From: a virus
Lineage: Duplodnaviria > Heunggongvirae > Uroviricota > Caudoviricetes
Reading direction: 5' to 3' (one strand)
DNA: 44,199 nucleotides
IMG/VR virus record: IMGVR_UViG_2734482531_000011
The notes beneath the pieces are model-generated. The model did no database searches and was not told the DNA's origin. It worked only from the letters and a program-made list of their open reading frames with translations. Of this stretch, positions 8,501-43,500 are shown one piece after another. Positions within the stretch are counted from its first letter, which is position 1. Every line of letters begins with the position of its first letter. Made by a program: the position numbers and the translations under genes.

Positions 8501-8919
8501 AAATCAAGCATGAGCACATCGAGTCAGTGTTGTTAGCCCTGGCAGCCGAAAAAGGGCAGGCATGGGTAGCCAATGCCATTACTGAAGAATATCTGCGCCA
8601 GGGGGGCGGCGAATTGCCCCTGGTACCAGGCAAGGACTGGAATAATCAGCAGAATATCTATCACCGTTGGTTGAAAGGTGAAACGAAAACGCAAAGAGAA
8701 AAAATTCAGAAGCTGATCCCAGCAATTCTGGCAATCCTTCCGCGCGAGCTGCGTCACCGACTCTGCATCTTCGATACCCTGGAACGCCGTGCATTACTGG
8801 CGGCGCAGGAAGCGTTAAGTACGGCAATTGATGCGCATGATGATGCAGTCCAAGCCGTTTACCGGAAAGCGCATTTCAGCGGCGGCGGGTCTTCCGACGA
8901 TTCTGTCATTGTTCATTAA
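8497..8919 (+). CDS. ydaT: YdaT CII-like / toxic protein, 140 aa
   Basis: 140-aa ORF overlapping the ydaS stop (ATGA); Rac gene order ydaS-ydaT. Confidence 0.8.
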   Translation: MKIKHEHIESVLLALAAEKGQAWVANAITEEYLRQGGGELPLVPGKDWNNQQNIYHRWLKGETKTQREKIQKLIPAILAILPRELRHRLCIFDTLERRALLAAQEALSTAIDAHDDAVQAVYRKAHFSGGGSSDDSVIVH

Positions 8920-8931
8920 GCAAAAGTTTCC

Positions 8932-9789
8932 ATGCTGTTTGTGCTTATTCTAAGCCACCGGGCAGCATCATACGGGGCAATTATGGCCGCATTACCATAC
9001 ATGCAACTGTACATAGCTGATTACCTGGCTGACACCATGCATTTGTCAGCAGAGGAGCATGGTGCGTATTTGTTGCTGATGTTCAATTACTGGCAAACAG
9101 GAAAGCCAATACCTAAAAACAGGCTGGCAAAAATTGCCCGTCTGACTAACGAGCGATGGGCTGATGTTGAACCATCCTTGCAGGAGTTTTTTTGCGATAA
9201 CGGCGAGGAATGGGTGCATCTTCGGATTGAGGAAGATCTGGCATCAGTCAGGGAAAAATTAACCAAAAAATCAGCCGCAGGAAAAGCATCTGTTCAGGCC
9301 AGAAGAAGCAGAAAGGAAGCAGATGTTCAAACAAAACAAGAGAGAAATTTAACAGGTGTTCAAACAGATGTTGAAGTGGTGTTTGAACATGATGTCAACA
9401 CAAAGGCAACTAATAAAGATACAGATAAAGATCTAAAAACAGATCCCCCCCTAAATCCCCCCCGGGGGAATCGAGGTGTCAAAAAGTTTGACCCTCTGGA
9501 TATTGCTTTGCCGAACTGGATTTCTGTCTCGCTTTGGCGTGAGTGGGTTGAATTTCGCCAGGCATTGCGAAAACCGATTCGAACGGAGCAGGGCGCTAAC
9601 GGGGCGATACGGGAGCTGGAAAAATTCCGCCAGCAGGGTTTTTCACCTGAGCAGGTGATTCGACACAGCATCGCCAATGAATACCAGGGCTTGTTCGCGC
9701 CGAAAGGTGTTCGACCTGAGACGTTACTCCGACAGGTTAACACCGTCTCGTTACCGGATAGTGCGATCCCGCCAGGCTTCAGGGGGTAA
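8932..9789 (+). CDS. ydaU: YdaU replication-initiation-like protein, 285 aa
   Basis: 285-aa ORF; position upstream of the DnaC-like ydaV as in Rac. Confidence 0.8.
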   Translation: MLFVLILSHRAASYGAIMAALPYMQLYIADYLADTMHLSAEEHGAYLLLMFNYWQTGKPIPKNRLAKIARLTNERWADVEPSLQEFFCDNGEEWVHLRIEEDLASVREKLTKKSAAGKASVQARRSRKEADVQTKQERNLTGVQTDVEVVFEHDVNTKATNKDTDKDLKTDPPLNPPRGNRGVKKFDPLDIALPNWISVSLWREWVEFRQALRKPIRTEQGANGAIRELEKFRQQGFSPEQVIRHSIANEYQGLFAPKGVRPETLLRQVNTVSLPDSAIPPGFRG

Positions 9790-9795
9790 CTGACC

Positions 9796-10236
9796 ATGAA
9801 AAATATTGCGACAGGCGACGTTCTTGAACGTATCCGCAGACTGGCCCCGTCACATGTAACCGCGCCATTCAAGACGGTAGCGGAGTGGCGCGAGTGGCAA
9901 CTTTCCGAAGGCCAGAAACGTTGTGAGGAGATCAACCGTCAGAATCGTCAGTTGCGGGTGGAAAAAATTCTGAATCGCTCTGGCATCCAGCCATTGCACC
10001 GCAAATGCTCGTTTTCGAATTACCAGGTGCAGAACGAAGCGCAGCGATACGCGTTGAGTCAGGCGAAATCCATCGCTGATGAACTGATGACCGGGTGTAC
10101 AAATTTTGCGTTCAGCGGAAAACCTGGTACCGGGAAGAACCACTTAGCGGCAGCTATCGGGAATCGCCTGCTGAAAGACGGTCAGACAGTGATTGTGGTT
10201 ACCGTGGCTGATGTTATGAGTGCCCTGCACGCCAGC
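9796..10236 (+). CDS. ydaV: YdaV DnaC/IstB-like helicase-loader ATPase, 5' portion only; the 3' end lies inside the N run
   Basis: Walker A FSGKPGTGKNHLAAAIG read directly; ORF continues into masked bases so the true end is not visible. Confidence 0.75.
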
Positions 10237-10570
10237 NNNNNNNNNNNNNNNNNNNNNNNNNNNNNNNNNNNNNNNNNNNNNNNNNNNNNNNNNNNNNNNN
10301 NNNNNNNNNNNNNNNNNNNNNNNNNNNNNNNNNNNNNNNNNNNNNNNNNNNNNNNNNNNNNNNNNNNNNNNNNNNNNNNNNNNNNNNNNNNNNNNNNNNN
10401 NNNNNNNNNNNNNNNNNNNNNNNNNNNNNNNNNNNNNNNNNNNNNNNNNNNNNNNNNNNNNNNNNNNNNNNNNNNNNNNNNNNNNNNNNNNNNNNNNNNN
10501 NNNNNNNNNNNNNNNNNNNNNNNNNNNNNNNNNNNNNNNNNNNNNNNNNNNNNNNNNNNNNNNNNNNNNN
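10237..10570. other. Run of 334 N (masked or unresolved sequence)
   Basis: Directly seen. Confidence 0.99.
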
Positions 10571-10594
10571 AATTTTTACCGGGAGGAAATTTTT

Positions 10595-11356
10595 ATGGAG
10601 ACTGTTTTTGACGCACTGAAAGCAATGGGAAAAGCCACATCCATAGAACTTGCTGCGCGACTTGATATCAGTCGTGAAGAAGTGCTGAACGAACTATGGG
10701 AACTGAAAAAAGCTGGTTTCGTTGATAAAAGCGCGTACACCTGGCGTGTGGCTGATAACAACGTTCAGCAGGAACAGCCAATGCAGGCAGAACTGCCGGA
10801 AGAAACCACCACGGCAACTGTAGTGAAAATCTCAGAGTGCGATTTAACCGCGACGATTGAACAACGCGGACCACAAACGGCGGATGAACTGGCTACGCTG
10901 TTCGGTACAACATCCCGCAAAGTTGCTTCAACGCTGGCAATGGCAATCAGCAAAGGACGCCTGATTCGCGTAAACCAGAACAGTAAATTTCGTTACTGCA
11001 TGCCGGGCGATAATTTACCAGCAGAGCCGAAAGCTGCATCGGTAGCGGAAACTGATGGTAAAGCCTTTCCTCAGCCAGCCGGTGTTGCGTTACCAGTACA
11101 GGAAGCGGCAACACAGGAAGATATTAAAACAGAAACTGTGGCGGACATTGTGCAGTCGCTGCCATCGTTTACTGAAACGCAAGCGGATGACCTAGTTTTA
11201 CCATCGCTGCATATGGCAAACCGCGAACTGCGTCGGGCGAAAAATCATGTCCAGAAGTGGGAGCGAGTCTGCGCCGCGCTGCGGGAGCTGAACAAGCACC
11301 GGGATATTGTCCGACAGATTGTCGATTCCTCCAGTCGTATTGTGTCGGAAAAGTGA
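10595..11356 (+). CDS. Hypothetical phage protein with N-terminal winged-helix-like segment, 253 aa
   Basis: ATG at 10595 preceded by GGGAGGA RBS; N-terminus [43 protein letters not shown] resembles a wHTH. Confidence 0.6.
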
Positions 11357-11371
11357 TTGCCGGAGGCGCTT

Positions 11372-11788
11372 ATGGCAAAAGTTTTTACACAGGAAGAGCG
11401 TGAAAAAATTAAGGAGCAGGTTGTTGAGTTGGTACGCCAGAGTGGGCGCGAGACGTTAAGGCAACTGGAGGCCAAGACAGGTGCGACAAGATATCTGATG
11501 AGCATTCTTGCCAGAGAGTTGGTTGCCAGTGGCGATGTATACAACTCTGGCTATGGGTTATTCCCGTCTGAACAGGCTCGTAAGGATTGGAAAAACGCCC
11601 GCAAAAAACTATCCAGGGCAAAGGTGAAAAAAACGGTTGTGGTTGATCCTGACCTTATCTGGTCATTACCAGACGGAGAAATACGCCGCTATGACAGGCG
11701 TCAGAACATAATCTGTCGCGAGTGCCGGAAGAGTGAAGTTATGAAACGTGTACTGGCATTTTATCAAGGAAATCTTCGGTATTTATAG
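11372..11788 (+). CDS. Hypothetical phage protein, 138 aa
   Basis: ATG at 11372 with GGAGG RBS; ORF track start at 11357 is a TTG extension. Confidence 0.55.
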   Translation: MAKVFTQEEREKIKEQVVELVRQSGRETLRQLEAKTGATRYLMSILARELVASGDVYNSGYGLFPSEQARKDWKNARKKLSRAKVKKTVVVDPDLIWSLPDGEIRRYDRRQNIICRECRKSEVMKRVLAFYQGNLRYL

Positions 11789-11923
11789 ACGTTACTAGAT
11801 CAAAGAGCATTAGTTCATATGTAAATTGACATTTTTCTGGCACAGGGGAGAGCTAGCGTGGTTGTCCGCTTTGTGCCAATAGCGGACATTGCTGGCTCAT
11901 GGTATGTTAGTTTAAGGAGGCAG

Positions 11924-11953
11924 GTTATGCCCTGTATTTCGCTGTGGTATAAT
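11924..11953 (+). promoter_or_regulatory. Candidate sigma70 promoter with extended -10 (TGgTATAAT at 11945-11953), weak -35
   Basis: Perfect TGnTATAAT; followed by AGGGAG RBS (11972-11977) and GTG at 11987. Confidence 0.4.
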
Positions 11954-11986
11954 AGTTGCGCAATTGATACAAGGGAGCGTTACATC

Positions 11987-12949
11987 GTGAAAATTGTTTT
12001 CGAGGTTAATGGAAAGAAAGTTCCACTAAAATCTTTAAAATACATAAGCAAAAAAGATCAACTCGAAGTAATGAAAAACTGGTTCTTTGAAAACTTTGAA
12101 GATCCGGCAAATGCTTGTCCGTATGAAAGTAGAGAAGGTGGCTATGCTTACATATATGGCGGGCCGTATGATGCGAGCGAAGAACTACAATCCATCTTCG
12201 GTCAATATGTTAAATCTGAGTATATTGAGGAATTAGTAGATGAATTACAAACACAATGTTTTGACTGGTCTGGAAACTCAAATAATATAGATGATTGGTA
12301 CGATGATGATATCTACGACGCTGTAACGTCTTCCGGTAATCCGTATTTAAAATTCATTGATAATATCGATAAAATAAAAAAACTTGCAAAAGATAAAACT
12401 GAACAACAGCAAAAAAACCACTTGCTTAGTTTGCTCTACACGAATGTTATTACAGCTTTGGAAACGCTTTATGTTGAGCTATTCATTAATTCTATAGAGA
12501 AAGATGATGTCTACATAGCCAATTGTATAGAAAAAGGTAAGACTGAATTTAAAGTAAGCAAAGATATTGCTGCGTTGCCTTTCAAGGGTGAACCCATCGA
12601 GAAAATTAGGGGAGAGCTAATCAGGTCAATCAAGGAACACTTGATCAGTGCAAGCTGGCATAGCACTAAAAAGGTAATCGACCGCTATGAAGCTACATTC
12701 GATATAAAAGTACAAAAAGACTGTCCGATAGAAGCTATTGAATTGGCAACCCTCAATCGAAATCACTTAGTGCATCGTGGTGGAAAGGATAAAGAAGGGA
12801 ACCTCGTAGTGATTACAGACCAGGATCTTGAAACGCTGATTGAAAATGCATCGAACCTGGCAATTATGCTCTACAACAGTTTAAATGTAGCAACGAATAA
12901 AACCACCATTTTGCAACCAGATGACAAACCGTTCATTCATGAATTTTAA
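11987..12949 (+). CDS. Cargo protein A, unknown function, about 320 aa; R-x4-H (RNHLVH) motif near C-terminus (possible HEPN-like); start could also be upstream (ORF open from 11858)
   Basis: Long ORF in an AT-rich segment; own promoter and RBS; 15-nt gap to next gene. Confidence 0.7.
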   Translation: MKIVFEVNGKKVPLKSLKYISKKDQLEVMKNWFFENFEDPANACPYESREGGYAYIYGGPYDASEELQSIFGQYVKSEYIEELVDELQTQCFDWSGNSNNIDDWYDDDIYDAVTSSGNPYLKFIDNIDKIKKLAKDKTEQQQKNHLLSLLYTNVITALETLYVELFINSIEKDDVYIANCIEKGKTEFKVSKDIAALPFKGEPIEKIRGELIRSIKEHLISASWHSTKKVIDRYEATFDIKVQKDCPIEAIELATLNRNHLVHRGGKDKEGNLVVITDQDLETLIENASNLAIMLYNSLNVATNKTTILQPDDKPFIHEF

Positions 12950-12964
12950 TAGCGCAGGTCATAC

Positions 12965-13966
12965 ATGGATATTCGCACACGAAAGACAAAATTTTTAGAG
13001 TCGTTAGATTCAACTGAAGTGATACGCAAAGCAGTAAGTCTCGCTATAGATTGCATTATTGATAATCATAATAGTAATGAAGATACCCCCTTAGTTATTA
13101 CCAGCTATGATGATCTCTGTAGAATCCAGGTGCTAAATTATGTACAGGAGTTTTGCGAAGCTGCATTCCCTGATATGGATGAATATTACTTTAGTCCTAA
13201 CATACTTCGCATCAACGGCAAGACTAGTGAAGAAGCTTGTATTAACTTAATTAAACTCTTAAGAAGTACAAAAGGCATGCTATTCTGGTCCGATGCCCCA
13301 TCGTGGTTCGCTAGCCTCCCCGACGGATTATTCCATGTTGTTAACATTGATCAAAAAATCGTTACTCGCGGCCTTAATAAGAAAAACTCTAAGCCGACAA
13401 TAATCAATAAAGATTACAGTGTAGATACACTACTATCAGAGCTATTTTTGAATGGCGCACACATGGAGCAACCCAACGTACACAACGTTTCTGAGGGAAA
13501 CATGAAGTTCTATGATGAATGCCATGCTGGATTAATCAGACCAATACCCGCTCCAATAGGCGCGTCATACGATGAAGAGATCACAATTAATTCTCCAGAT
13601 TGGCAAAAGCTCGCGTGTGTAGCTTTACGCCGCTATCAGTCGAAGGAATGTCATGACGGAATGCAATGGGATACAACCGATCATGGTTGGACTGATGTAA
13701 TCGCGTATCCATTCGTCGAAGAAATACAATCAATGGATAATAGTGGTTATCGACAATGTTTAGTTGGGCTGGTCACAATAAACAATTCAAATGCAAATTC
13801 TCCGTACCTATCTACCGTTTGGATACATCCATTTTATCGCAGGAGAGGGTTATTAAGTAAGTTATGGCCAAAATTACAAGAGTTATATGGAAGTAACTTC
13901 GAAATTGAGCGACCTAATGAAAATATGAAAGCATTTCTGAAAAGTGCGAAACACGCAGATTACTAA
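12965..13966 (+). CDS. Cargo protein B, unknown function, 333 aa; C-terminal segment VWIHPFYRRRGLLSKLW weakly resembles GNAT motif A
   Basis: Long ORF in AT-rich segment, co-oriented and tightly spaced with protein A. Confidence 0.75.
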   Translation: MDIRTRKTKFLESLDSTEVIRKAVSLAIDCIIDNHNSNEDTPLVITSYDDLCRIQVLNYVQEFCEAAFPDMDEYYFSPNILRINGKTSEEACINLIKLLRSTKGMLFWSDAPSWFASLPDGLFHVVNIDQKIVTRGLNKKNSKPTIINKDYSVDTLLSELFLNGAHMEQPNVHNVSEGNMKFYDECHAGLIRPIPAPIGASYDEEITINSPDWQKLACVALRRYQSKECHDGMQWDTTDHGWTDVIAYPFVEEIQSMDNSGYRQCLVGLVTINNSNANSPYLSTVWIHPFYRRRGLLSKLWPKLQELYGSNFEIERPNENMKAFLKSAKHADY

Positions 13967-14143
13967 TTTATGAATCAGTCTGTGGAGTTAGGGTTGGTGT
14001 GAACAAGTAGGGTAAGAGCCTCAACGTGATGCTATGCCGACCTGCTCCCTGAGAATTCACACAGAAGGCTGCTAGCAATGTCTGCAGATCGCTCAAAGCG
14101 GACTAAAATGTTGGCTTGTTTCTGACTTAGAGCATTTAAGGAA

Positions 14144-14368
14144 GTGCTGGTGGTGACTGGTTGTTGTGTTCCATTTCTACAGAATAAAATCACAGAAACT
14201 ATACCCAATAGTTGTATTGAATCACTGACGAGACAGCCTCATATTTATCAGGACTGGTGTGCGTCTAATACAGGGGGTTGTCGTGCTGGTTCTCAAATGT
14301 GCGCTGGCTATTGCGGCTGTAATGGCAATTTATTGTCTTGCTGTTGTTCTTATGGAGCGGCTTTCTGA
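14144..14368 (+). CDS. Candidate small Cys-rich protein, 74 aa, GTG start; speculative
   Basis: ORF with 12 Cys, C-terminal CRAGSQMCAGYCGCNGNLLSCCCSYGAAF; no convincing RBS spacing. Confidence 0.25.
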   Translation: MLVVTGCCVPFLQNKITETIPNSCIESLTRQPHIYQDWCASNTGGCRAGSQMCAGYCGCNGNLLSCCCSYGAAF

Positions 14369-14586
14369 TTGATTACATACTGGCTAGAAAAAAGGTGTTA
14401 CCTTGGTTTATCTTTGTCCGGCAAGGTGCGCTCATTAATCTTAAGTAAATTTATTGCTCAAGTATTCAGATTACTTCTTATGGTTGAAGTCTCCTGTCAA
14501 TGTAGAACCAATATATTTACAAAAATGAGACCCGTCGGGGATAGCCCTGCCGGGTCTGACTGTTAAAGCATTTTTAATATGATCAT

Positions 14587-14925
14587 CTATTTTTTGGTGC
14601 TATAGACTTTTTCGCCCGAAAAGTCTGGAGCGACCCAAAAGTTAATATTAAACTGAGCATCATCGCTTAGTTCAACACGGTGCCAGTATTGTGGTGGGCT
14701 TGTTGCAAAAGCGCCAGCATTAATGACTACTTTTATCTCCGGTTCAGTAGCATTCTCATCAGTAAAACCATAATATGTTACAGTGCCTTCCATTACGCAC
14801 AACTGCCCAAAAACACCTGCTGCTGTATTATGATGTGTTAATAACGCTGAAGGTACGTTCTCTTTTGTGAAGAACGGAGTTGAGCGTTTGATTACCCAAT
14901 CTTTAGGAATTCTCTTGTGTGTCAT
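14587..14925 (-). CDS. YeaR/DUF1971-like cupin-type protein (TehB-associated domain family), 112 aa
   Basis: Pattern RSTPFF...PA...GV...L.VM.G.V.Y.GF.DE...EP......AG.FA..PP..WH...L.DD..FNI.FWVAP matches my recall of E. coli YeaR; strong GGAGGAGG RBS before ATG 14925. Confidence 0.7.
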   Translation of the reverse strand: MTHKRIPKDWVIKRSTPFFTKENVPSALLTHHNTAAGVFGQLCVMEGTVTYYGFTDENATEPEIKVVINAGAFATSPPQYWHRVELSDDAQFNINFWVAPDFSGEKVYSTKK

Positions 14926-15738
14926 AACCACCTCCTCCAAAACATGCATTAAAAATGCATCTTTTGGAGGGTTATGTCAAGCTGTTATGAAACACATAAT
15001 TGATATGTTGATTAGAGGAGAAGATAGAATAAATATGGTTGTTTTTCGTATAACTATTTGTTTTACTTTTAGTTTATGCATTCTGTGTGTTAGGAATAAG
15101 TTATTAAAGTTTAATCAAAAAATCTCGATGTAGTCCACATAGATTACTGTTACTGAACCTTATTGTGTGTATTAGTTGTGTTCTGAAATTTCAGCTTAAT
15201 TATTTATGATGTATTTTTTAACGATAAATATTTTCCCAGGATACCTTTACTGTGTATATAAATAAATTATATACGCATAAATAATGTAAAGGCGTCCTTT
15301 TAGATATATCTTATCAAATGTTAATGACTTGAGTGGGAAATATGATTCCAGCAACTTATCATGTGGCTACTTTATAAAAATAATGCCCATATAAAACAAC
15401 AAGCGAAAAGGATTACGGATAAAAAAGGAGCGAGATGTGCGAACTTGTTATTTTCCATGTTTAACCACCTTAAATAATTGATGATGACGGGATGATTGCA
15501 TCTGTAATGCTTTTATTGAAATGTTATGATAAAAAAGAACTTTTGCATAACATTAAAATGTAATTTATCTAATCGTTTTTAATAATAAGTGTCGTATTTC
15601 TATCCTTGTACCAGCTATTTGATATGTAGTGTTTGTTCATGCTATGTGGGGCTTTACACCATAGCCAGTTTATTTATACTTTATTCGTCAGCCTGAACAA
15701 CTGGCATCTGCTGCGCTGCGCCATCGAGAGATTGAGAA

Positions 15739-16338: not shown

Positions 16339-16628
16339 TGGTGAATTTACGTAAAGCGGCTAAAGGCCAGATGTGCCAGATCAGAATCCCTGGCTACTGC
16401 AATCACAATCCCGAAACCTCTGTGCTGGCGCATTACAGGCTGGCGGGGACGTGCGGAACAGCGACAAAACCACATGATATGCAGGCGGCGATAGCCTGTA
16501 GCTCATGCCACGATCTAATCGACGGGCGGGTAAAAACCAGCGATTACACCAAAGAAGAATTGCGCCTGATGCATGCTGAAGGGGTTTTTCGCACACAAGA
16601 AATCTGGAGAAAGAAAGGTCATTTATGA
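16338..16628 (+). CDS. ybcO: YbcO-like putative nuclease (DUF1364), 96 aa
   Basis: Cys/His pattern CQIRIPGYCNHNPETSVLAH...CSSCHDLIDGR resembles DLP12 YbcO. Confidence 0.7.
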   Translation: MVNLRKAAKGQMCQIRIPGYCNHNPETSVLAHYRLAGTCGTATKPHDMQAAIACSSCHDLIDGRVKTSDYTKEELRLMHAEGVFRTQEIWRKKGHL

Positions 16629-17167
16629 TTTACCCAACGAATACAGGAAAAAGCGGAGAACACCTTCGCCTCACCACGCTGGAAAGTGTCTGGATTCAGG
16701 GAAAACTACGTATGTGGGGGCGCTGGTCGTATATTGGCGGTGGCAGGTCAGGGAATATGTTCAATCAGTTGTTGGCATCCAAAAAACTGACGAAAACAGC
16801 CATTAATGAAGCCCTGCGCAGAATGAAAAAAGCGGGAATAGAGAAAGCTGAGCTGGAAGCGTTTTTGCGAGAGATGATCAACGGCAAGCAAAAGAGCTGG
16901 CTGGCGCATTGTACTGATGCAGAGGCGTTATGTATTGATCGAGTCATAAGTGAGGTGCTGGCAGAGCATCCAGGATTGATTTGCATTCTCCGGCAACGCT
17001 ATGAAGGGCGGGGGATGACTAAGCGCAAAATGGCTGAATTGCTAAATGATGCACACCCAGAGTGGTGTTTTAGCACATGCGAAAAACGGATTGCTAATTG
17101 GTTAGCTGTTGCTGAGTATGCCCTATATATTCCCATGCGTGAATCATTTGCTGAGAAAATGGCTTGA
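16625..17167 (+). CDS. Putative late-gene antiterminator Q-like protein, 180 aa
   Basis: Called by position (last gene before terminators and lysis region) and size; sequence family not confirmed. Confidence 0.5.
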   Translation: MIYPTNTGKSGEHLRLTTLESVWIQGKLRMWGRWSYIGGGRSGNMFNQLLASKKLTKTAINEALRRMKKAGIEKAELEAFLREMINGKQKSWLAHCTDAEALCIDRVISEVLAEHPGLICILRQRYEGRGMTKRKMAELLNDAHPEWCFSTCEKRIANWLAVAEYALYIPMRESFAEKMA

Positions 17168-17276: not shown

Positions 17277-17594
17277 GTCAGGAAAGCAGGGGAGAATGCT
17301 GCTAGTTGGGCAACTGGTCTTTCTGCTCCAAATTATAACAGAGACCAGTTATAGTTTCGGTGCTGTGTTTTTTTTACAATATTGTGATAACACATTGCTG
17401 GCGGGAGTTTTGATATTTCTTGGCAGGGGCTGATGATGCGTTATCCTGATGTCGTCAACTCATATAAAATGAGATGAGAGATCATTGCAGGGTGGTTTGT
17501 AATTCGCTGTTTAGCGGGACAATATGTTGTCTGATACAAGACACCCGACGCCTCAGATTACTATAATAAAGACGAAGCATCCTTTGTATTGACC

Positions 17595-17620
17595 AACCGC
17601 CTGTTTAGGCGGTTCTTTTT
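17595..17620 (+). terminator. Second rho-independent terminator (stem AACCGCC/GGCGGTT, U-run)
   Basis: aaccgcctgtttaggcggttcttttt read directly. Confidence 0.55.
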
Positions 17621-18211
17621 GGGCTGGTTTATTGTATGCCAAATGATTATTAAAAAGGTTGTGTTAATAACAAGATCCGAAATAATATGCCTGCATATTT
17701 TTATCTTGCTTATATTCTGCATATTGTGCATAGCAGGCTCATCCCTGCAATCAAAACTGTATGATGAGTATTTTTTGTTTTCCTTTTTTCCAGTCATCTG
17801 ATGATGACCTGCTTCTTTTTAATCCGGATCGACATCAGTTTTTTAAGATAATTCCTGCGAGTTATATGCATAAATGCCACAAACTCCGCATTTTATGTGG
17901 TTGGGAGTTGCCGGGCGCGCAGTGAGTTTGCTAAGAAAACTCCTGCATGGTGAATCCCCCTGTGCGGTGGGGTGATACCATTAACCTTTTCTGTCGCCGA
18001 CAGGTATCACGAACATTTTGTTCACCGGGAGGCACCCGGCACCATGCACTTCAATAGATTCTCTCCACATTATGGATATTCTTTCAGAATATCCCACGCA
18101 GACTTTGTGTAAATGTTAACAAATGTGCGTTTTATTTGATCTGATTCGCTGTTTGAGCGTCCAAAACAACGGTATATATAATCCTTTACTATATGACATA
18201 TGTGAGGAAAA

Positions 18212-18640
18212 ATGGGTTTTCGTAGCGCATCAATTCTTACGTTGATTATTAGTGGGATTATTATCGGGTGCACTGATGCTGTATCGACAAATTATCATGA
18301 CCGTACATCATATTACTCCGATAAAGCAATAGAGACACAGTATGTGAGTTCATCTGAACGTACTTCTGATGTTAGTGAGGATATCCGTCTGTATGCCCAT
18401 CAAATCAAGAGCGCCATCGAAAAACAGTTCGGGGATGCGAGTAAGTATTCAGGAAAAGAGTGTACACTGAGAATGCATATGGCCCCGAATGGCCTTCTAC
18501 TGGAGGTTAAAAGAGAAAGTGGAGACCTCGATTTATGTCGTGAAGCGATGAATGCGATAAAGAATGCTGATATACCTGCCCCCCCTTCGCCGGAAGTATA
18601 TAAAGTATTTCAAAATGGGGTGCTGGATTTTAAACCCTGA
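18212..18640 (+). CDS. Lipoprotein with TolA C-terminal domain (domain III)-like region, 142 aa
   Basis: Signal peptide with lipobox IIGC; C-terminus YAHQIKSAIEKQFGDASKYSGKECTLRMHMAPNGLLLEV...IPAPPSPEVYKVFQNGVLDFKP closely resembles my recall of E. coli TolA C-terminus. Confidence 0.75.
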   Translation: MGFRSASILTLIISGIIIGCTDAVSTNYHDRTSYYSDKAIETQYVSSSERTSDVSEDIRLYAHQIKSAIEKQFGDASKYSGKECTLRMHMAPNGLLLEVKRESGDLDLCREAMNAIKNADIPAPPSPEVYKVFQNGVLDFKP

Positions 18641-18790
18641 TATTTATTGTTTTGTAATAAACGGTTTCGGCTTAGGTTTGTTCTGACACAGCTACGGCAC
18701 TGAGCTAAATTTAGCGGATAGTCAGCTCTGAGCCAGTGGCGGACGTAACAACTACTATTGCTGAGATTTTAATGGATTGAGGAGCAAGAA

Positions 18791-19186
18791 GTGGGATTAA
18801 AGAAAATCGTTATGTTGACTTTTTGGGTCGGTTTTGTTGCGGGATGCACACCTTTACACCCTTCAGATTGCCACAAAACTACTGCTACAGGTAGTTGCAG
18901 TTCAGGACGCTGGGATGATCAGGATGAATGGGGGGCGCAAGCGCGGGGAATCAGAGCTGCAATTAATGCCAAACTTGATGAGCCGCATAACTGGAAAGGG
19001 AAAAAATGCAGGTTGCATATGGAATTCTCTCAGGATGGCACGGCGTTAAAAATATCTACCAGTAACGGTGATAAAGCCTATTGCGAAGCGATAAAGTCCG
19101 CAGCTCATAAAGCCAAATTTCCGGCCTTCAACAATCCGGAAGTCTACAGAGATTTTCAGAAATCTGGCTTTGACATGCGAGGTTAG
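18791..19186 (+). CDS. Paralogous lipoprotein with divergent TolA-III-like C-terminus, 131 aa, GTG start
   Basis: Lipobox VAGC; KKCRLHMEFSQDGTALKIS...FPAFNNPEVYRDFQKSGFD aligns with the upstream paralogue; GAGGAG RBS. Confidence 0.7.
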   Translation: MGLKKIVMLTFWVGFVAGCTPLHPSDCHKTTATGSCSSGRWDDQDEWGAQARGIRAAINAKLDEPHNWKGKKCRLHMEFSQDGTALKISTSNGDKAYCEAIKSAAHKAKFPAFNNPEVYRDFQKSGFDMRG

Positions 19187-19311
19187 CTCTTCAATTACTA
19201 TATCTCATTCATAGCAAACTGACAGATTTGATGATGTTCTATATACGAAACCTGTGATGTCAAGTCTGAGCTAATACAAATAAACATAATATCAGAGAAA
19301 TACATTTTATT

Positions 19312-19336
19312 AGCTCGCTACGGCGAGCTTTTTATA
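19312..19336 (+). terminator. Rho-independent terminator upstream of the lysis cassette
   Basis: agctcgctacggcgagctttttta. Confidence 0.55.
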
Positions 19337-19437
19337 TTGCATCGTCTCCAGCATATATATCAATTAAGGCTCTGATTGATGTGTCTGAAAGCCTACACAT
19401 AATAACTATGCCATCCGTTCCGTGCGGAGGTGAGGCT

Positions 19438-19653
19438 ATGAAATCCATGGACAAAATTTCAACAGGCATTGCCTACGGCACCTCCGCAGGCAGTGCTGGC
19501 TACTGGTTTTTACAGTTGCTCGATAGAGTAACTCCGTCACAGTGGGCTGCAATCGGTGTGCTGGGTAGTCTGGTATTTGGCCTGCTGACGTACCTGACAA
19601 ACCTTTATTTCAAGATTAAAGAAGATAAGCGCAAGGCTGCGAGAGGTGAATAA
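19438..19653 (+). CDS. Phage 21-type pinholin S (dual-start MKSM motif), 71 aa
   Basis: [31 protein letters not shown]...KAARGE matches my recall of S21; GGAGGTGA RBS. Confidence 0.85.
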
Positions 19654-20150
19654 TGCCTCCATCATTACGAAAAGTCGTTGCTGCTGCTATTGGTGGCGGA
19701 GCAATTGCTATAGCATCAGTGTTAATCACTGGCCCAAGTGGTAACGATGGTCTGGAAGGTGTCAGCTACATACCATACAAAGATATTGTTGGTGTATGGA
19801 CTGTATGTCACGGGCATACAGGAAAAGACATCANNNNNNNNNNNNNNNNNNNNNNNNNNNNNNNNNNNNNNNNNNNNNNNNNNNNNNNNNNNNNNNNNNN
19901 NNNNNNNNNNNNNNNNNNNNNNNNNNNNNNNNNNNNNNNNNNNNNNNNNNNNNNNNNNNNNNNNNNNNNNNNNNNNNNNNNNNNNNNNNNNNNNNNNNNN
20001 NNNNNNNNNNNNNNNNNNNNNNNNNNNNNNNNNNNNNNNNNNNNNNNNNNNNNNNNNNNNNNNNNNNNNNNNNNNNNNNNNNNGCAATGGAAAGGTCTCA
20101 TGACTCGTCGTGAGATTGAGCGTGAAATCTGTTTGTGGGGTCAGCAATGA
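19653..20150 (+). CDS. SAR (signal-anchor-release) endolysin, R21-like lysozyme, 165 aa; central part masked by N
   Basis: N-terminus [36 protein letters not shown] (SAR domain) and C-terminus [21 protein letters not shown]; frame is maintained across the N run. Confidence 0.85.
19834..20083. other. Run of 250 N (masked or unresolved sequence) inside the endolysin gene
   Basis: Directly seen. Confidence 0.99.
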
Positions 20151-20611
20151 ACAGAGTAACCGCGATTATCTCCGCTCTGGTTATCTGCATCATCGTCTGC
20201 CTGTCATGGGCTGTTAATCATTACCGTGATAACGCCATTACCTACAAAGCCCAGCGCGACAAAAATGCCAGAGAACTGAAGCTGGCGAACGCGGCAATTA
20301 CTGACATGCAGATGCGTCAGCGTGATGTTGCTGCGCTCGATGCAAAATACACGAAGGAGTTAGCTGATGCGAAAGCTGAAAATGATGCTCTGCGTGATGA
20401 TGTTGCCGCTGGTCGTCGTCGGTTGCACATCAAAGCAGTCTGTCAGTCAGTGCGTGAAGCCACCACCGCCTCCGGCGTGGATAATGCAGCCTCCCCCCGA
20501 CTGGCAGACACCGCTGAACGGGATTATTTCACCCTCCGGGAACGACTGGTAATGATGCAGGCCCAACTTGAAGGTGCTCAGCAATACATAACCGAGCAGT
20601 GTTTAAAGTAA
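20147..20611 (+). CDS. Rz i-spanin, 154 aa
   Basis: [23 protein letters not shown] anchor then coiled-coil periplasmic domain; start overlaps endolysin stop (ATGA). Confidence 0.85.
20367..20552 (+). CDS. Rz1 o-spanin lipoprotein embedded in the +1 frame of Rz, 61 aa
   Basis: Lipobox LVVVGC and proline-rich mature part [15 protein letters not shown]. Confidence 0.8.
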
Positions 20612-20748
20612 AATCTTAACTACAATATGATTCATTTTGATGATTGTTTCATAAGGAACAGTGAAGTAAGATCTAAGAGGAGTTAAATTTTATACAGTAT
20701 AATCATAATATTGCAGCAAGGTGGTTATAATTGAAAGAATATTTAGAT

Positions 20749-22206
20749 ATGAATACATCTCATGTAAGAGTTGTTACTCATATGTGTGGGTTCCTGGTTT
20801 GGCTCTATAGTCTTTCAATGTTGCCACCAATGGTTGTAGCATTGTTTTATAAAGAAAAAAGCCTGTTCGTTTTCTTTATAACTTTCGTTATATTTTTTTG
20901 CATTGGTGGCGGAGCGTGGTATACAACTAAGAAATCTGGCATTCAATTACGTACCCGTGATGGGTTTATTATAATTGTAATGTTTTGGATTTTGTTTTCT
21001 GTTATTAGTGCATTCCCTTTATGGATTGACTCAGAACTTAATTTAACGTTCATTGATGCTCTGTTTGAAGGGGTTTCTGGAATAACAACAACAGGAGCAA
21101 CTGTAATTGATGATGTTAGTTCATTACCTCGGGCATATTTGTACTATCGGTCACAGTTAAATTTTATAGGTGGTTTAGGAGTTATTGTTCTGGCGGTTGC
21201 AGTATTGCCATTATTGGGTATTGGTGGTGCAAAGCTTTATCAGTCAGAAATGCCGGGGCCATTTAAGGATGACAAACTCACTCCCCGCCTGGCCGATACG
21301 TCACGGACACTGTGGATAACTTATTCTTTATTAGGTATTGCTTGTATTGTCTGTTATAGACTTGCAGGAATGCCTTTGTTTGATGCTATTTGTCACGGGA
21401 TTTCCACAGTTTCGCTTGGTGGTTTCTCAACTCATAGCGAGAGTATCGGATATTTTAATAACTATTTGGTTGAGCTGGTGGCTGGTTCTTTTTCCCTGCT
21501 ATCGGCTTTCAACTTCACTCTTTGGTATATTGTTATTAGCAGAAAAACGATAAAACCTTTAATCAGAGATATTGAACTTCGTTTCTTTCTGTTAATAGCC
21601 TTAGGGGTGATCATTGTTACCTCTTTCCAGGTCTGGCATATAGGTATGTATGACTTGCATGGAAGTTTTATTCATTCGTTTTTTCTTGCCAGCTCCATGC
21701 TCACTGATAATGGTTTAGCTACGCAGGATTATGCAAACTGGCCCACGCACACGATAGTGTTTTTGCTGTTGTCAAGTTTCTTTGGGGGATGTATAGGTTC
21801 AACCTGTGGTGGAATTAAGTCACTTCGATTTCTTATACTTTTCAAACAAAGCAAACACGAGATAAATCAGCTTTCTCATCCCAGAGCGTTGTTGAGTGTA
21901 AATGTAGGAGGGAAGATAGTTACAGATCGTGTAATGAGGTCTGTATGGAGTTTCTTTTTTCTTTATACTCTCTTCACGGTGTTTTTTATACTGGTGTTAA
22001 ATGGTATGGGATATGATTTTCTTACATCATTTGCAACAGTGGCTGCATGTATTAATAATATGGGATTAGGTTTTGGGGCTACTGCATCGTCATTCGGAGT
22101 GCTTAATGACATTGCAAAATATTTAATGTGCATAGCTATGATTCTTGGTCGCCTTGAAATTTATCCTGTTATTATATTGTTTTCAGGTTTTTTTTGGCGC
22201 TCCTAA
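20749..22206 (+). CDS. trkG: TrkG potassium uptake protein (TrkH family), 485 aa
   Basis: MNTSHVRVVTHMCGFLVWLYSL... multi-pass membrane protein matching my recall of Rac TrkG; AT-rich gene. Confidence 0.9.
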   Translation: MNTSHVRVVTHMCGFLVWLYSLSMLPPMVVALFYKEKSLFVFFITFVIFFCIGGGAWYTTKKSGIQLRTRDGFIIIVMFWILFSVISAFPLWIDSELNLTFIDALFEGVSGITTTGATVIDDVSSLPRAYLYYRSQLNFIGGLGVIVLAVAVLPLLGIGGAKLYQSEMPGPFKDDKLTPRLADTSRTLWITYSLLGIACIVCYRLAGMPLFDAICHGISTVSLGGFSTHSESIGYFNNYLVELVAGSFSLLSAFNFTLWYIVISRKTIKPLIRDIELRFFLLIALGVIIVTSFQVWHIGMYDLHGSFIHSFFLASSMLTDNGLATQDYANWPTHTIVFLLLSSFFGGCIGSTCGGIKSLRFLILFKQSKHEINQLSHPRALLSVNVGGKIVTDRVMRSVWSFFFLYTLFTVFFILVLNGMGYDFLTSFATVAACINNMGLGFGATASSFGVLNDIAKYLMCIAMILGRLEIYPVIILFSGFFWRS

Positions 22207-40596: not shown

Positions 40597-43500
40597 ATGG
40601 GTAAAGGCAGCAGTAAGGGGCATACCCCGCGCGAAGCGAAGGACAACCTGAAGTCCACGCAGCTGCTGAGTGTGATCGATGCCATCAGTGAAGGGCCGGT
40701 TGAAGGTCCGGTGGATGGATTAAAAAGCGTGCTGCTGAACAGTACGCCGGTGCTGGACAATGAGGGGAATACCAACATCTCCGGCGTCACGGTGGTGTTC
40801 CGGGCAGGTGAGCAGGAGCAGTCACCGCCGGAGGGGTTTGAATCCTCCGGCTCCGAGACGGTGCTGGGTACGGAAGTGAAATATGACACGCCGATCACCC
40901 GGACCATCACGTCGGCAAACATCGACCGTCTGCGCTTTACCTTCGGTGTACAGGCACTGGTGGAAACCACCTCAAAGGGAGACAGGAATCCGTCGGAAGT
41001 CCGCCTGCTGGTTCAGATACAGCGTAACGGTGGCTGGGTGACGGAAAAAGACATCACCATTAAGGGCAAAACCACCTCGCAGTATCTGGTCTCGGTGGTG
41101 GTGGATAACNNNNNNNNNNNNNNNNNNNNNNNNNNNNNNNNNNNNNNNNNNNNNNNNNNNNNNNNNNNNNNNNNNNNNNNNNNNNNNNNNNNNNNNNNNN
41201 NNNNNNNNNNNNNNNNNNNNNNNNNNNNNNNNNNNNNNNNNNNNNNNNNNNNNNNNNNNNNNNNNNNNNNNNNNNNNNNNNNNNNNNNNNNNNNNNNNNN
41301 NNNNNNNNNNNNNNNNNNNNNNNNNNNNNNNNNNNNNNNNNNNNNNNNNNNNNNNNNNNATACAGCGGTATCTGGGACGGAACGTTAAAACCAGCATACA
41401 GCAACAACATGGCCTGGTGTCTGTGGGATATGCTGACCCACCCGCGCTACGGCATGGGGAAACGTCTTGGTGCGGCGGATGTGGACAAATGGGCGCTGTA
41501 TGTCATCGGCCAGTACTGCGACCAGTCAGTGCCGGACGGCTTTGGCGGCACGGAGCCGCGCATCACCTGTAATGCGTACCTGACCACACAGCGCAAGGCG
41601 TGGGATGTGCTCAGTGATTTCTGCTCGGCGATGCGCTGTATGCCGGTATGGAACGGGCAGACGCTGACGTTCGTGCAGGACCGACCGTCGGATAAGGTGT
41701 GGACCTATAACCGCAGTAATGTGGTGATGCCGGATGATGGCGCGCCGTTCCGCTACAGCTTCAGCGCCCTGAAAGACCGCCATAATGCCGTTGAGGTGAA
41801 CTGGATTGACCCGGATAACGGCTGGGAGACGGCGACAGAGCTTGTGGAGGATACGCAGGCCATTGCCCGTTACGGTCGTAACGTCACGAAGATGGATGCT
41901 TTTGGCTGTACCAGCCGGGGGCAGGCACACCGCGCCGGGCTGTGGCTGATTAAAACAGAACTGCTGGAAACGCAGACCGTGGACTTCAGCGTGGGCGCAG
42001 AAGGGCTTCGCCATGTGCCGGGCGATGTCATTGAAATCTGTGATGATGACTATGCGGGTATCAGCATCGGCGGGCGCGTGCTGGCGGTAAACAGCCAGAC
42101 CCGGACGCTGACGCTCGACCGTGAAATCACGCTGCCATCCTCCGGTACCATGCTGATAAGCCTGGTTGACGGAAGTGGCAATCCGGTCAGCGTGGAGGTT
42201 CAGTCCGTCACCGACGGCGTGAAGGTGAAAGTGAGCCGTGTTCCTGACGGCGTTGCTGAATACAGCGTGTGGGGGCTGAAGCTGCCGACGTTGCGCCAGC
42301 GCCTGTTCCGCTGTGTGAGTATCCGTGAGAACGATGACGGCACGTATGCCATCACTGCCGTGCAGCATGTACCGGAAAAAGAAGCCATCGTGGATAACGG
42401 GGCGCACTTTGACGGCGACCAGAGCGGCACGGTGAATGGTGTCACGCCGCCAGCGGTGCAGCACCTGACTGCCGAAGTCACCGCAGACAGCGGGGAATAT
42501 CAGGTGCTGGCGCGCTGGGACACGCCGAAGGTGGTGAAGGGGGTGAGCTTTATGCTTCGCCTGACCGTGGCAGCGGATGACGGCAGTGAGCGGCTGGTCA
42601 GCACGGCCCGGACGACGGAAACCACATACCGCTTCACGCAACTGGCGCTGGGACGGTACACGCTGACAGTCCGGGCGGTAAATGCCTGGGGACAGCAGGG
42701 CGATCCGGCGTCGGTATCGTTCAGGATTGCCGCACCGGTAGCACCGTCGCGGATTGAGCTGACGCCGGGCTATTTTCAGATAACTGCCACGCCGCATCTT
42801 GCGGTTTATGATCCGACGGTACAGTTTGAGTTCTGGTTCTCGGAAACGCGGATTACCGATATCAGGCAGGTTGAAACCACAGCCCGCTACCTTGGCGCGG
42901 GGCTGTACTGGATAGCCGCCAGTATCAATATCAAACCGGGCCATGATTATTACTTTTATATCCGCAGTGTGAACACCGTTGGCAAATCGGCATTCGTGGA
43001 GGCCGTCGGTCGGGCGAGCGATGATGCGGAAGGTTACCTGGATTTTTTCAAAGGCAAGATAACCGAATCCCATCTCGGTAAAGAGCTGCTGGAAAAAGTT
43101 GATCTGACGGAGGATAACGCCAGCAGACTGGATGAGTTTTCGAAAGAGTGGAAGGACGCTAACGATAAATGGAATGCGATGTGGGGCGTCAAAATTGAGC
43201 AGACCAAAGACGGCAAACATTATGTCGCGGGTATTGGCCTCAGCATGGAGGACACGGAGGAAGGCAAGCTGAGCCAGTTTCTGGTTGCCGCCAATCGTAT
43301 CGCGTTTATTGACCCGGCAAACGGGAATGAAACGCCGATGTTTGTGGCGCAGGGCAACCAGATATTCATGAACGACGTGTTCCTGAAGCGCCTGACAGCC
43401 CCCGCCATTACCAGCGGTGGCAGTCCTCCGGTATTTTCCCTGACATCAGACGGAAAGCTGACCGCTAAAAATGCGGATATCAGTGGTAGTGTGAATGCGA

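Follow-up and report, generated by a model that had tools for sequence, protein, structure and literature searches.

Why should an Escherichia coli prophage carry, in the interval between its candidate late-gene antiterminator and its lysis genes, two short genes for the terminal domain of the host protein TolA? The question is raised by a 44,199-nucleotide tailed-phage record (IMG/VR IMGVR_UViG_2734482531_000011), the whole of which is referred to here as the window and supplies the coordinates below. Two open reading frames lie in this interval on the + strand, ORF1 (18212-18640; 142 aa, ATG start, Shine-Dalgarno (SD) sequence GAGGA) and ORF2 (18791-19186; 131 aa, GTG start, SD sequence GAGGAG), and both encode predicted outer-membrane lipoproteins ending in a domain that resembles TolA domain III (TolA-III). 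A preliminary description of this DNA had located the same two frames, read them as tandem paralogous lipoproteins in a slot for lysogenic-conversion cargo, and suggested that they might be decoys blocking Tol-dependent import. Our analysis indicates that the two proteins are TolA heads cut off from any motor, for which a decoy role is a tentative explanation.

Each frame begins with a signal peptide that has a basic n-region and a hydrophobic h-region and ends in the lipobox recognised before: IIGC in ORF1, where residues 1-19 (MGFRSASILTLIISGIIIG, followed by C-T) precede the predicted lipidated Cys20, and VAGC in ORF2 (MGLKKIVMLTFWVGFVAG, followed by C-T), where the predicted lipidated residue is Cys19. 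The lipobox Cys is invariant in all homologs. Lipoproteins of E. coli without Asp at position +2 are sorted to the outer membrane; ORF1 and ORF2 both have Thr there and are therefore predicted by this +2 rule to follow the same route, making an outer-membrane location likely for the two. A linker of about 34 residues in ORF1, predicted to be disordered over residues 20-50 in the AlphaFold2 (AF2) model, and of 27 residues in ORF2 leads to the C-terminal domain, which spans residues 55-142 of ORF1 (nucleotides 18374-18637) and, in more diverged form, residues 46-131 of ORF2 (nucleotides 18926-19183).

The identity of this domain is supported by profile, alignment and fold alike. Against Pfam PF06519, which has a gathering threshold of 25 bits, ORF1 scores 82.6 bits (E=2.4e-23, profile positions 4-96 of 96) and ORF2 54.6 bits (E=1.3e-14, positions 10-92 of 96), and phmmer comparison with the TolA chains of the PDB gives gapless alignments of ORF1 to TolA residues 334-421 (E=5e-28) and of ORF2 to residues 341-419 (E=5e-9). 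The ORF1 domain is identical to that of E. coli TolA at 52 of 88 positions (59%); the ORF2 domain shares 27 of 81 (33%) and has the identical order of secondary-structure elements. In the AF2 models both domains have a predicted local confidence (pLDDT) above 90, and the top Foldseek matches are TolA structures, 2x9a_B for ORF1 (root-mean-square deviation (rmsd) 0.6 Å, TM-score 0.96) and 3qdp for ORF2 (rmsd 1.1 Å, TM-score 0.92). The disulfide cysteines of TolA (C363, C388) align with C84 and C109 in ORF1 and with C73 and C98 in ORF2, and are invariant across 19-21 homologs. The C-terminal segment of ORF1 that the preliminary description had quoted as nearly collinear with TolA is exact, and the pairwise alignment and structure prediction it had put forward as a check both bear out the resemblance.

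The resemblance ends with this domain. TolA proper is the force transducer of the Tol-Pal system, represented by the equivalog families NCBIfam NF007065 and TIGR02794, and neither protein reaches the NF007065 cut-off of 213 (107.8 bits for ORF1, 53.7 for ORF2), only the last ~95 profile positions being matched. Compared with canonical TolA N-termini, both sequences lack the N-terminal transmembrane (TM) helix with its SHLS motif and have lipoprotein signal peptides instead. This distinction extends to a profile search of 1.84 billion representative sequences, in which an S..LH..L TM motif is seen in the canonical TolA representatives and is absent from the short proteins. The long domain II is likewise absent, the distance from the predicted lipidated Cys to the domain being only 34 residues in ORF1 and 27 in ORF2, and no tolQR, tolB or pal gene lies beside ORF1 and ORF2, whose neighbours are phage genes. 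Because they have neither the TolA membrane anchor nor domain II, these heads could not couple to the TolQR motor. As far as sequence can tell, ORF1 and ORF2 are unenergised TolA heads and not TolA in the functional sense.

A protein that retains only the end of TolA might simply be a relic of it, ORF1 a truncated tolA pseudogene and ORF2 a decaying copy, and public annotation points this way: on an identical sequence PGAP/RefSeq erroneously flags ORF1 (as 18380-18640) as a tolA pseudogene, 'incomplete; missing N-terminus', because the frame is compared with full-length TolA equivalog models. RAST names ORF1 'TolA protein'. We find this explanation hardly credible, and the selection analysis effectively refutes it. 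Variants of ORF1 are known at 91, 74 and 66% identity which differ mainly in the signal peptide and linker, and throughout this range the SD sequence, the ATG and the lipoprotein signal are kept. When the ORF1 domain is compared with the 66% variant, the ratio of nonsynonymous to synonymous substitution (dN/dS, Nei-Gojobori) comes to 0.24; for mature ORF2 it is 0.04-0.08 against the IncI1, Serratia and Enterobacter copies (dS 0.5-1.1). Moreover, of 5,426 complete E. coli genomes, about 780 have the ORF1+ORF2 pair with 99% identity or more. By these measures ORF1 is an intact functional gene under purifying selection and no pseudogene.

The start of ORF2 is also misplaced by PGAP, which uses ATG 18812, seven codons late, and so removes the basic n-region of the signal peptide. 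The GTG at 18791, the start adopted in the preliminary description, is favoured because about 45 nt upstream of it, SD sequence included, are conserved in plasmid, pO157 and chromosomal contexts alike, and because the IncI1 copy of the gene has an ATG at the position of the window's GTG. Selection on ORF2 is not confined to the domain. Its linker is constrained as strongly, and a Cys-x7-Cys-x8-Cys spacing is kept in relatives of 50% identity or less; from this constraint it seems that the linker does more than tether the domain. A possible look-alike of the TolB-binding epitope of colicin E9 in the linker, SSGRWDDQDEWG, was considered and rejected, as the motif is lost in diverged members of the subfamily and residue W47 is part of helix 1 in the model.

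Two TolA-III lipoproteins do stand side by side, as the term 'tandem paralogous' implied, but they are no duplicate pair. ORF1 and ORF2 are 29% identical overall and 31% identical in the domain, and outside the ORF1 subfamily the domain nearest to that of ORF1 is that of E. coli TolA (59%), other short proteins reaching at most 49%. A tandem duplication is rejected because ORF1 is closer to E. coli TolA than to ORF2. A neighbour-joining/Fitch count gives at least three independent origins, a number which, with ~90 aligned residues, is indicative only. From their sequences we consider ORF1 and ORF2 to be functional genes of separate origin.

What would an unpowered TolA head be for? TolA-III presents two edges to its ligands: the β3 strand (A415-K420) together with the start of helix α2, bound by the N1 domain of the filamentous-phage protein g3p (g3p-N1), by colicin N and by the TolB N-terminus, and the β2 strand L375-P380 together with K368, K379 and K396, bound by colicin A (PMC3365938, PMC4339652, PMC7391070). 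ORF1 retains much of both edges. Its β3 strand reads GVLDFKP against APLDFKP in TolA, with LDFKP identical and at the same C-terminal end, while LLEVKR in ORF1 keeps most of the colicin A strand LLDIKP, and two of the three cation-pi lysines of the colicin A site are kept. The g3p of phage If1 also uses TolA-III as co-receptor (PDB 2X9A).

We propose, as a tentative reading that falls just short of an even chance of being right, that ORF1 and ORF2 are decoys or competitors of TolA that stall Tol-dependent import. The binding partners and phenotype that we infer for them would be as follows. Small lipoproteins in the inner leaflet of the outer membrane would display TolA-III heads into the periplasm, where these unpowered heads would bind, by β-strand addition, partners that the real TolA must reach; candidate ligands are the segments by which group A colicins contact TolA, g3p-N1 and/or the strand at the N-terminus of TolB. 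With Tol-dependent import stalled, the carrier would tolerate these toxins and phages. ORF1, the close mimic of E. coli TolA-III, would be the better candidate for a true ligand decoy; in ORF2 the edge strands are altered and the linker is constrained, and this protein probably has its own mode of binding to a conserved partner. There is a laboratory precedent: Levengood-Freyermuth et al. in 1993 reportedly obtained colicin-tolerant, leaky E. coli by expressing free TolA-III in the periplasm. Such capture need not be costly, because the affinity of TolA is 1 µM for colicin N and 40 µM for TolB (PMC4339652), so that invaders could be captured preferentially with little cost to Tol-Pal. Circumstantial support comes further from the purifying selection on both genes, from the promoter-like site and terminator of the cassette, from relatives in which TonB and TolA heads are fused, and from the carriage of ORF2-type genes on I-complex plasmids.

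The distribution of the two genes bears on this proposal and on its rivals. Among the contigs of IMG/VR, at least 152 carry the pair. All ORF1-type proteins found come from E. coli or Shigella; those of the ORF2 type fall into more than 370 clusters at 90% identity, 78-89% identical to ORF2, in at least 13 genera of Enterobacterales, among them Citrobacter, Enterobacter, Klebsiella, Raoultella, Serratia and Leclercia as well as Pantoea, Kluyvera, Yokenella, Buttiauxella, Pluralibacter and Rouxiella. Synteny around the ORF2-type genes does not extend beyond a single genus. ORF2-type genes occupy ordinary chromosomal sites in Enterobacter, where the neighbours are housekeeping genes, and in Leclercia, and in Serratia marcescens (L004, 5957-7736) the gene adjoins a GmrSD-family type IV restriction gene and a HEPN-domain gene, a small neighbourhood resembling a defence island. 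About 600 plasmids in PLSDB carry an ORF2-type gene. On the I-complex conjugative plasmids (IncI1/B/O, IncK2/Z) it is flanked by the relaxase gene nikB, with which it shares a strand, and by trbC (L002, 5995-6426; L019, 3995-4426), and on plasmid pO157 of enterohaemorrhagic E. coli it lies upstream of toxB (L018, 4995-5426). Two contigs of ~8 kb from metagenome-assembled genomes labelled Lachnospiraceae and Treponemataceae (L101, L102) carry nikA/nikB with an ORF2-type gene of 89% identity, and are almost certainly enterobacterial I-complex plasmid fragments mis-binned into unrelated assemblies. The ORF2 type is a widely dispersed accessory gene of Enterobacterales, not a phage-specific moron, and to describe it as phage cargo, as had been done, is too narrow for a gene that also resides on I-complex plasmids, pO157 and the chromosomes of at least 13 genera.

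The position directly after nikB, on the same strand in both IncI1/B/O and IncK2/Z plasmids, might indicate a part in DNA transfer, in conjugation of the I-complex plasmids or in phage DNA entry or exit, for instance by linking the transfer machinery to Tol-Pal or to the envelope of the recipient. We consider this very improbable, as the same family is found on the non-conjugative pO157, in prophages and at isolated chromosomal sites, and we know of no established role for TolA in I-type conjugation. For protection, the plasmids are of interest in another respect. The pili of I-complex plasmids are the receptors of phage If1.

ORF1 and ORF2 are moreover part of a broader family. The profile search returned 588 matches, and about 70 of the best 150 are proteins of 115-160 aa matched from the N-terminus on. 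A lipobox is present in at least 46 of the 57 short relatives retrieved, none of these 46 has Asp at +2, and a variable linker is followed by a TolA-III domain mostly ending in ...LDFK(P/L). In all there are ~50 clusters of diverged short TolA-III lipoproteins, their genomic context being seen mostly on contigs of 1-3 kb. In three relatives (P0178, P0226 and P0244), which have no TM anchor, the lipoprotein signal is followed first by the C-terminal domain of TonB (PF03544, 47-67 bits) and then by that of TolA, so that two force-transducer heads share one predicted lipid anchor. The gene for one of them, P0226 (L131, 6001-6630), belongs to the nin region of a lambdoid prophage and is distant from the lysis genes. 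A wider claim may be framed on this basis, which we hold more hesitantly than the decoy reading itself and think somewhat doubtful: that mobile elements of Enterobacterales (prophages, I-complex conjugative plasmids, pO157, small chromosomal islets) carry an unrecognised form of single-gene protection in which unenergised, outer-membrane-tethered heads, of TolA alone or of TonB and TolA together, intercept Tol- or Ton-dependent bacteriocins and filamentous phages as these enter. Pilus-bearing hosts of I-complex plasmids would then be shielded from the TolA-dependent phage If1.

A different role is suggested by the immediate surroundings in the window. As the preliminary description had it, the genes lie in the interval between Q and lysis. 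The upstream edge of this cargo slot is a Q-like late-gene antiterminator candidate (16625-17167, + strand) of the DUF1133 family (Pfam, 356 bits) with a weak match to Phage_antitermQ (26.1 bits; gathering threshold 26), and the downstream edge is a P21-type holin gene (19438-19653, + strand; Phage_holin_2_1, 119.9 bits), named essD by PGAP, which is followed by rrrD-like endolysin and Rz/Rz1 spanin genes (19653-20611, + strand). ORF1 and ORF2 might accordingly be lysis accessories, expressed by late read-through from pR', whose heads jam Tol-Pal, loosen the outer membrane and aid the spanins or the release of vesicles or virions. They are indeed downstream of the Q-like gene, directly upstream of the holin gene, and co-inherited with it: a mosaic module at 17924-19654, comprising an STnc100 small RNA (sRNA) gene, ORF1, ORF2 and the holin gene, which forms its right end, is shared at 97% with phage mEp460_ev081, where it stands behind a different Q gene. 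The STnc100-family prophage sRNA (17915-18101, + strand; Rfam RF02076, 86.6 bits against a gathering threshold of 47, full length) has its 5' end at the left edge of this module.

Within the module, however, the cassette may be a unit of its own. A σ70 promoter-like site (TTGAGC-18 nt-TATAAT, 18153-18182, + strand; 10 of 12 matches in a consensus scan) lies ~30 nt upstream of the ORF1 start, and a terminator scan places an intrinsic terminator in the gap between ORF2 and the holin gene (19312-19335, + strand), with a 7-bp GC-rich stem, a UACG loop and a U-run; its predicted RNA fold has -13 kcal/mol (z = -3.4) and none of 200 shuffled sequences was equally stable. The G+C content at third codon positions (GC3) is 36% in ORF1 and 43% in ORF2 against 47-52% in the Q-like, holin and Rz genes. 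With its promoter-like site, terminator and low GC3 the cassette has, on sequence criteria, a moron-like anatomy; ORF1 and ORF2 may be expressed in the lysogen, where the terminator would prevent their transcription from running on into the lysis genes. In relatives, ORF1-type variants are separated from the holin gene by variable cargo; the Q-to-holin interval there holds an ORF1-type gene alone, or with an esterase gene, or with tRNA genes. In related prophages a 66%-identical ORF1-type gene stands by itself in this interval, immediately behind the tRNA genes which in Stx phages lead up to stx, and the likening of this site to the stx position is borne out. No lysis genes occur near the ORF2-type genes on plasmids and chromosomes or near the nin-region TonB-TolA relative. 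The function appears not to be tied to lysis, because ORF2-type genes reside on I-complex plasmids, pO157 and non-syntenic chromosomal sites, and we judge a lysis role improbable. A protective role is favoured over it because of the laboratory precedent, the TonB-TolA fusions, the variety of mobile carriers and the conjunction of I-pilus plasmids with If1.

Further signals in this interval can be listed beside these. A candidate pR'/tR' pair lies at 17538-17620 (+ strand), with a promoter-like AAGACA-18-TATAAT site ~370 nt 3' of the Q-like gene and, ~30 nt after that site, a terminator-like hairpin with a T-run (17595-17614), a candidate for late-gene antitermination. STnc100, which is related to the PasD sRNAs of Stx-type prophages (2026 preprint), was considered as a pR' leader; this is unlikely, the sRNA moving with the cargo module behind two unrelated Q genes. 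A published indication of expression was also set aside: EDL933_2012, induced 32-fold by ciprofloxacin and tied to 'TolA' (PMC11125564), is a tail-fibre protein in that study's supplementary table.

Several observations weigh against the decoy reading. For ORF2, the ligands of TolA cannot be assumed. The β3 strand of ORF2 is SGFDMRG, unlike that of TolA, its β2 strand is ALKIST, and all three colicin A contact lysines are replaced (by E, S and H), so ORF2 may not bind the known TolA-III ligands. Even in ORF1, where interface-specific mimicry was sought, identity at the mapped ligand-contact positions is not clearly above the 59% domain average. Just one of 50,697 deposited phage genomes, that of mEp460_ev081, has the genes, PADLOC-DB v2 gives no defence-model match for ORF1 or ORF2 at E≤1, and the evidence for the promoter at 18153-18182 is the consensus match only. 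Binding of TolB by such a head could also harm the envelope of the carrier itself. Finally, ORF2 is very strongly conserved across genera, for which a conserved host partner is a better fit than an arms race in which the toxins vary.

The last point leads to the remaining explanation, that the heads are envelope modulators which bind TolB or another conserved Tol-Pal partner at the outer membrane and so tune Pal mobilisation, vesicle release or envelope stability, as a trait of physiology or virulence, any tolerance being a side effect. The extreme conservation of ORF2, linker included, in at least 13 genera fits such an endogenous partner, as do the ordinary Enterobacter and Leclercia sites and the position beside toxB on pO157, and production of outer-membrane vesicles could be regulated via TolB interactions (PMC7391070). 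For ORF2, a conserved partner such as TolB would fit at least as well as toxin capture. We think this explanation unlikely, though less so than a lysis role. The affinity of TolB for TolA is weak at 40 µM, the neighbourhoods are non-syntenic and often mobile or of defence type, which suggests accessory cargo, and fusions of TonB and TolA C-terminal domains are harder to account for as Tol-Pal tuning.

The prophage that bears the cassette is a fuller Rac-type E. coli prophage than the K-12 version, which we take to lack the ORF1/ORF2 segment. Its gene order runs recET, kilR, sieB, ydaS/T-like, replication genes, hokD, DUF1367, YbcO-like and Q-like DUF1133, then ORF1, ORF2, essD holin, rrrD endolysin, Rz/Rz1, trkG, ynaK, terminase, P22-like capsid and tail genes. 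The trkG gene (20731-22206, + strand; TrkH-family K+ transporter, 37.7% GC), directly 3' of Rz/Rz1, is classic low-GC Rac cargo and confirms the identity of the prophage as Rac. The window is near-identical to the Rac prophage of ECCHD184 except at ~8520-15356, where colinearity is lost and ECCHD184 has BCCT transporter, DUF2254, LysR, gamma-glutamylcyclotransferase and MFS genes; here, from the replication genes to hokD, the cargo appears to vary. Masked runs of N occupy 10237-10570, 19834-20083 and 41110-41359, the second of which takes out the core of the endolysin gene.

The TolA-domain homology itself is already in public annotation. NCBI/PGAP gives the name 'cell envelope integrity TolA C-terminal domain-containing protein' to identical genes in hundreds of RefSeq genomes and plasmids, and ORF1 and ORF2 are full-length members of PHROG phrog_5772 (210 and 218 bits), an entry of 'unknown function'. 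In our full-text search of the literature, no work on the function of TolA-domain lipoproteins from prophages or plasmids was found. Should the decoy or competitor role be true, a built-in factor for tolerance to Tol-dependent colicins and filamentous phages would be present in roughly one sequenced E. coli genome in seven (through Rac), on many resistance plasmids of the I-complex and on pO157. This would bear on colicin- and phage-based antimicrobials, on strain competition in the gut and on the use of male-specific phages against plasmid-bearing bacteria, and it would mean that nature has produced a molecular mimic of an energy-transducer head, which would also be a ready-made tool for studies of how TolA, TolB and colicins interact. 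Whatever the role, a systematic annotation error, the pseudogene flag on ORF1 and the late start of ORF2, is corrected.

Among known systems the closest is E. coli TolA-III itself (PDB 1TOL, 1S62, 3QDP/3QDR, 2X9A), with which ORF1 and ORF2 share fold, Pfam family and disulfide, whereas the TM helix with SHLS, the helical domain II and the tol-pal operon are replaced by a lipoprotein signal and a linker of 27-34 residues. Free TolA-III or g3p-N1 placed in the periplasm in the laboratory acts as a dominant-negative; the free TolA head is likewise unpowered, competes with native TolA and is reported to cause tolerance to colicins and phages as well as leakiness, which makes it the direct experimental precedent for the proposed mechanism. 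Those constructs, however, are artificial, soluble and overexpressed, while ORF1 and ORF2 are natural, selectively maintained, predicted to be lipid-anchored, and carried by mobile elements. In this last respect they recall Llp of T5, Cor of phi80 and N15, and TraT of the F plasmid, small outer-membrane lipoproteins of mobile elements, often morons, that protect their carrier by blocking an entry route of rival phages or colicins. The likeness is one of functional analogy, no Llp, Cor or TraT family being found among the Pfam, PHROG or fold-search matches of ORF1 and ORF2, and it has a clear limit: Llp, Cor and TraT mask an outer-membrane receptor (FhuA, OmpA), whereas ORF1 and ORF2 would mimic the head of a periplasmic energy transducer.

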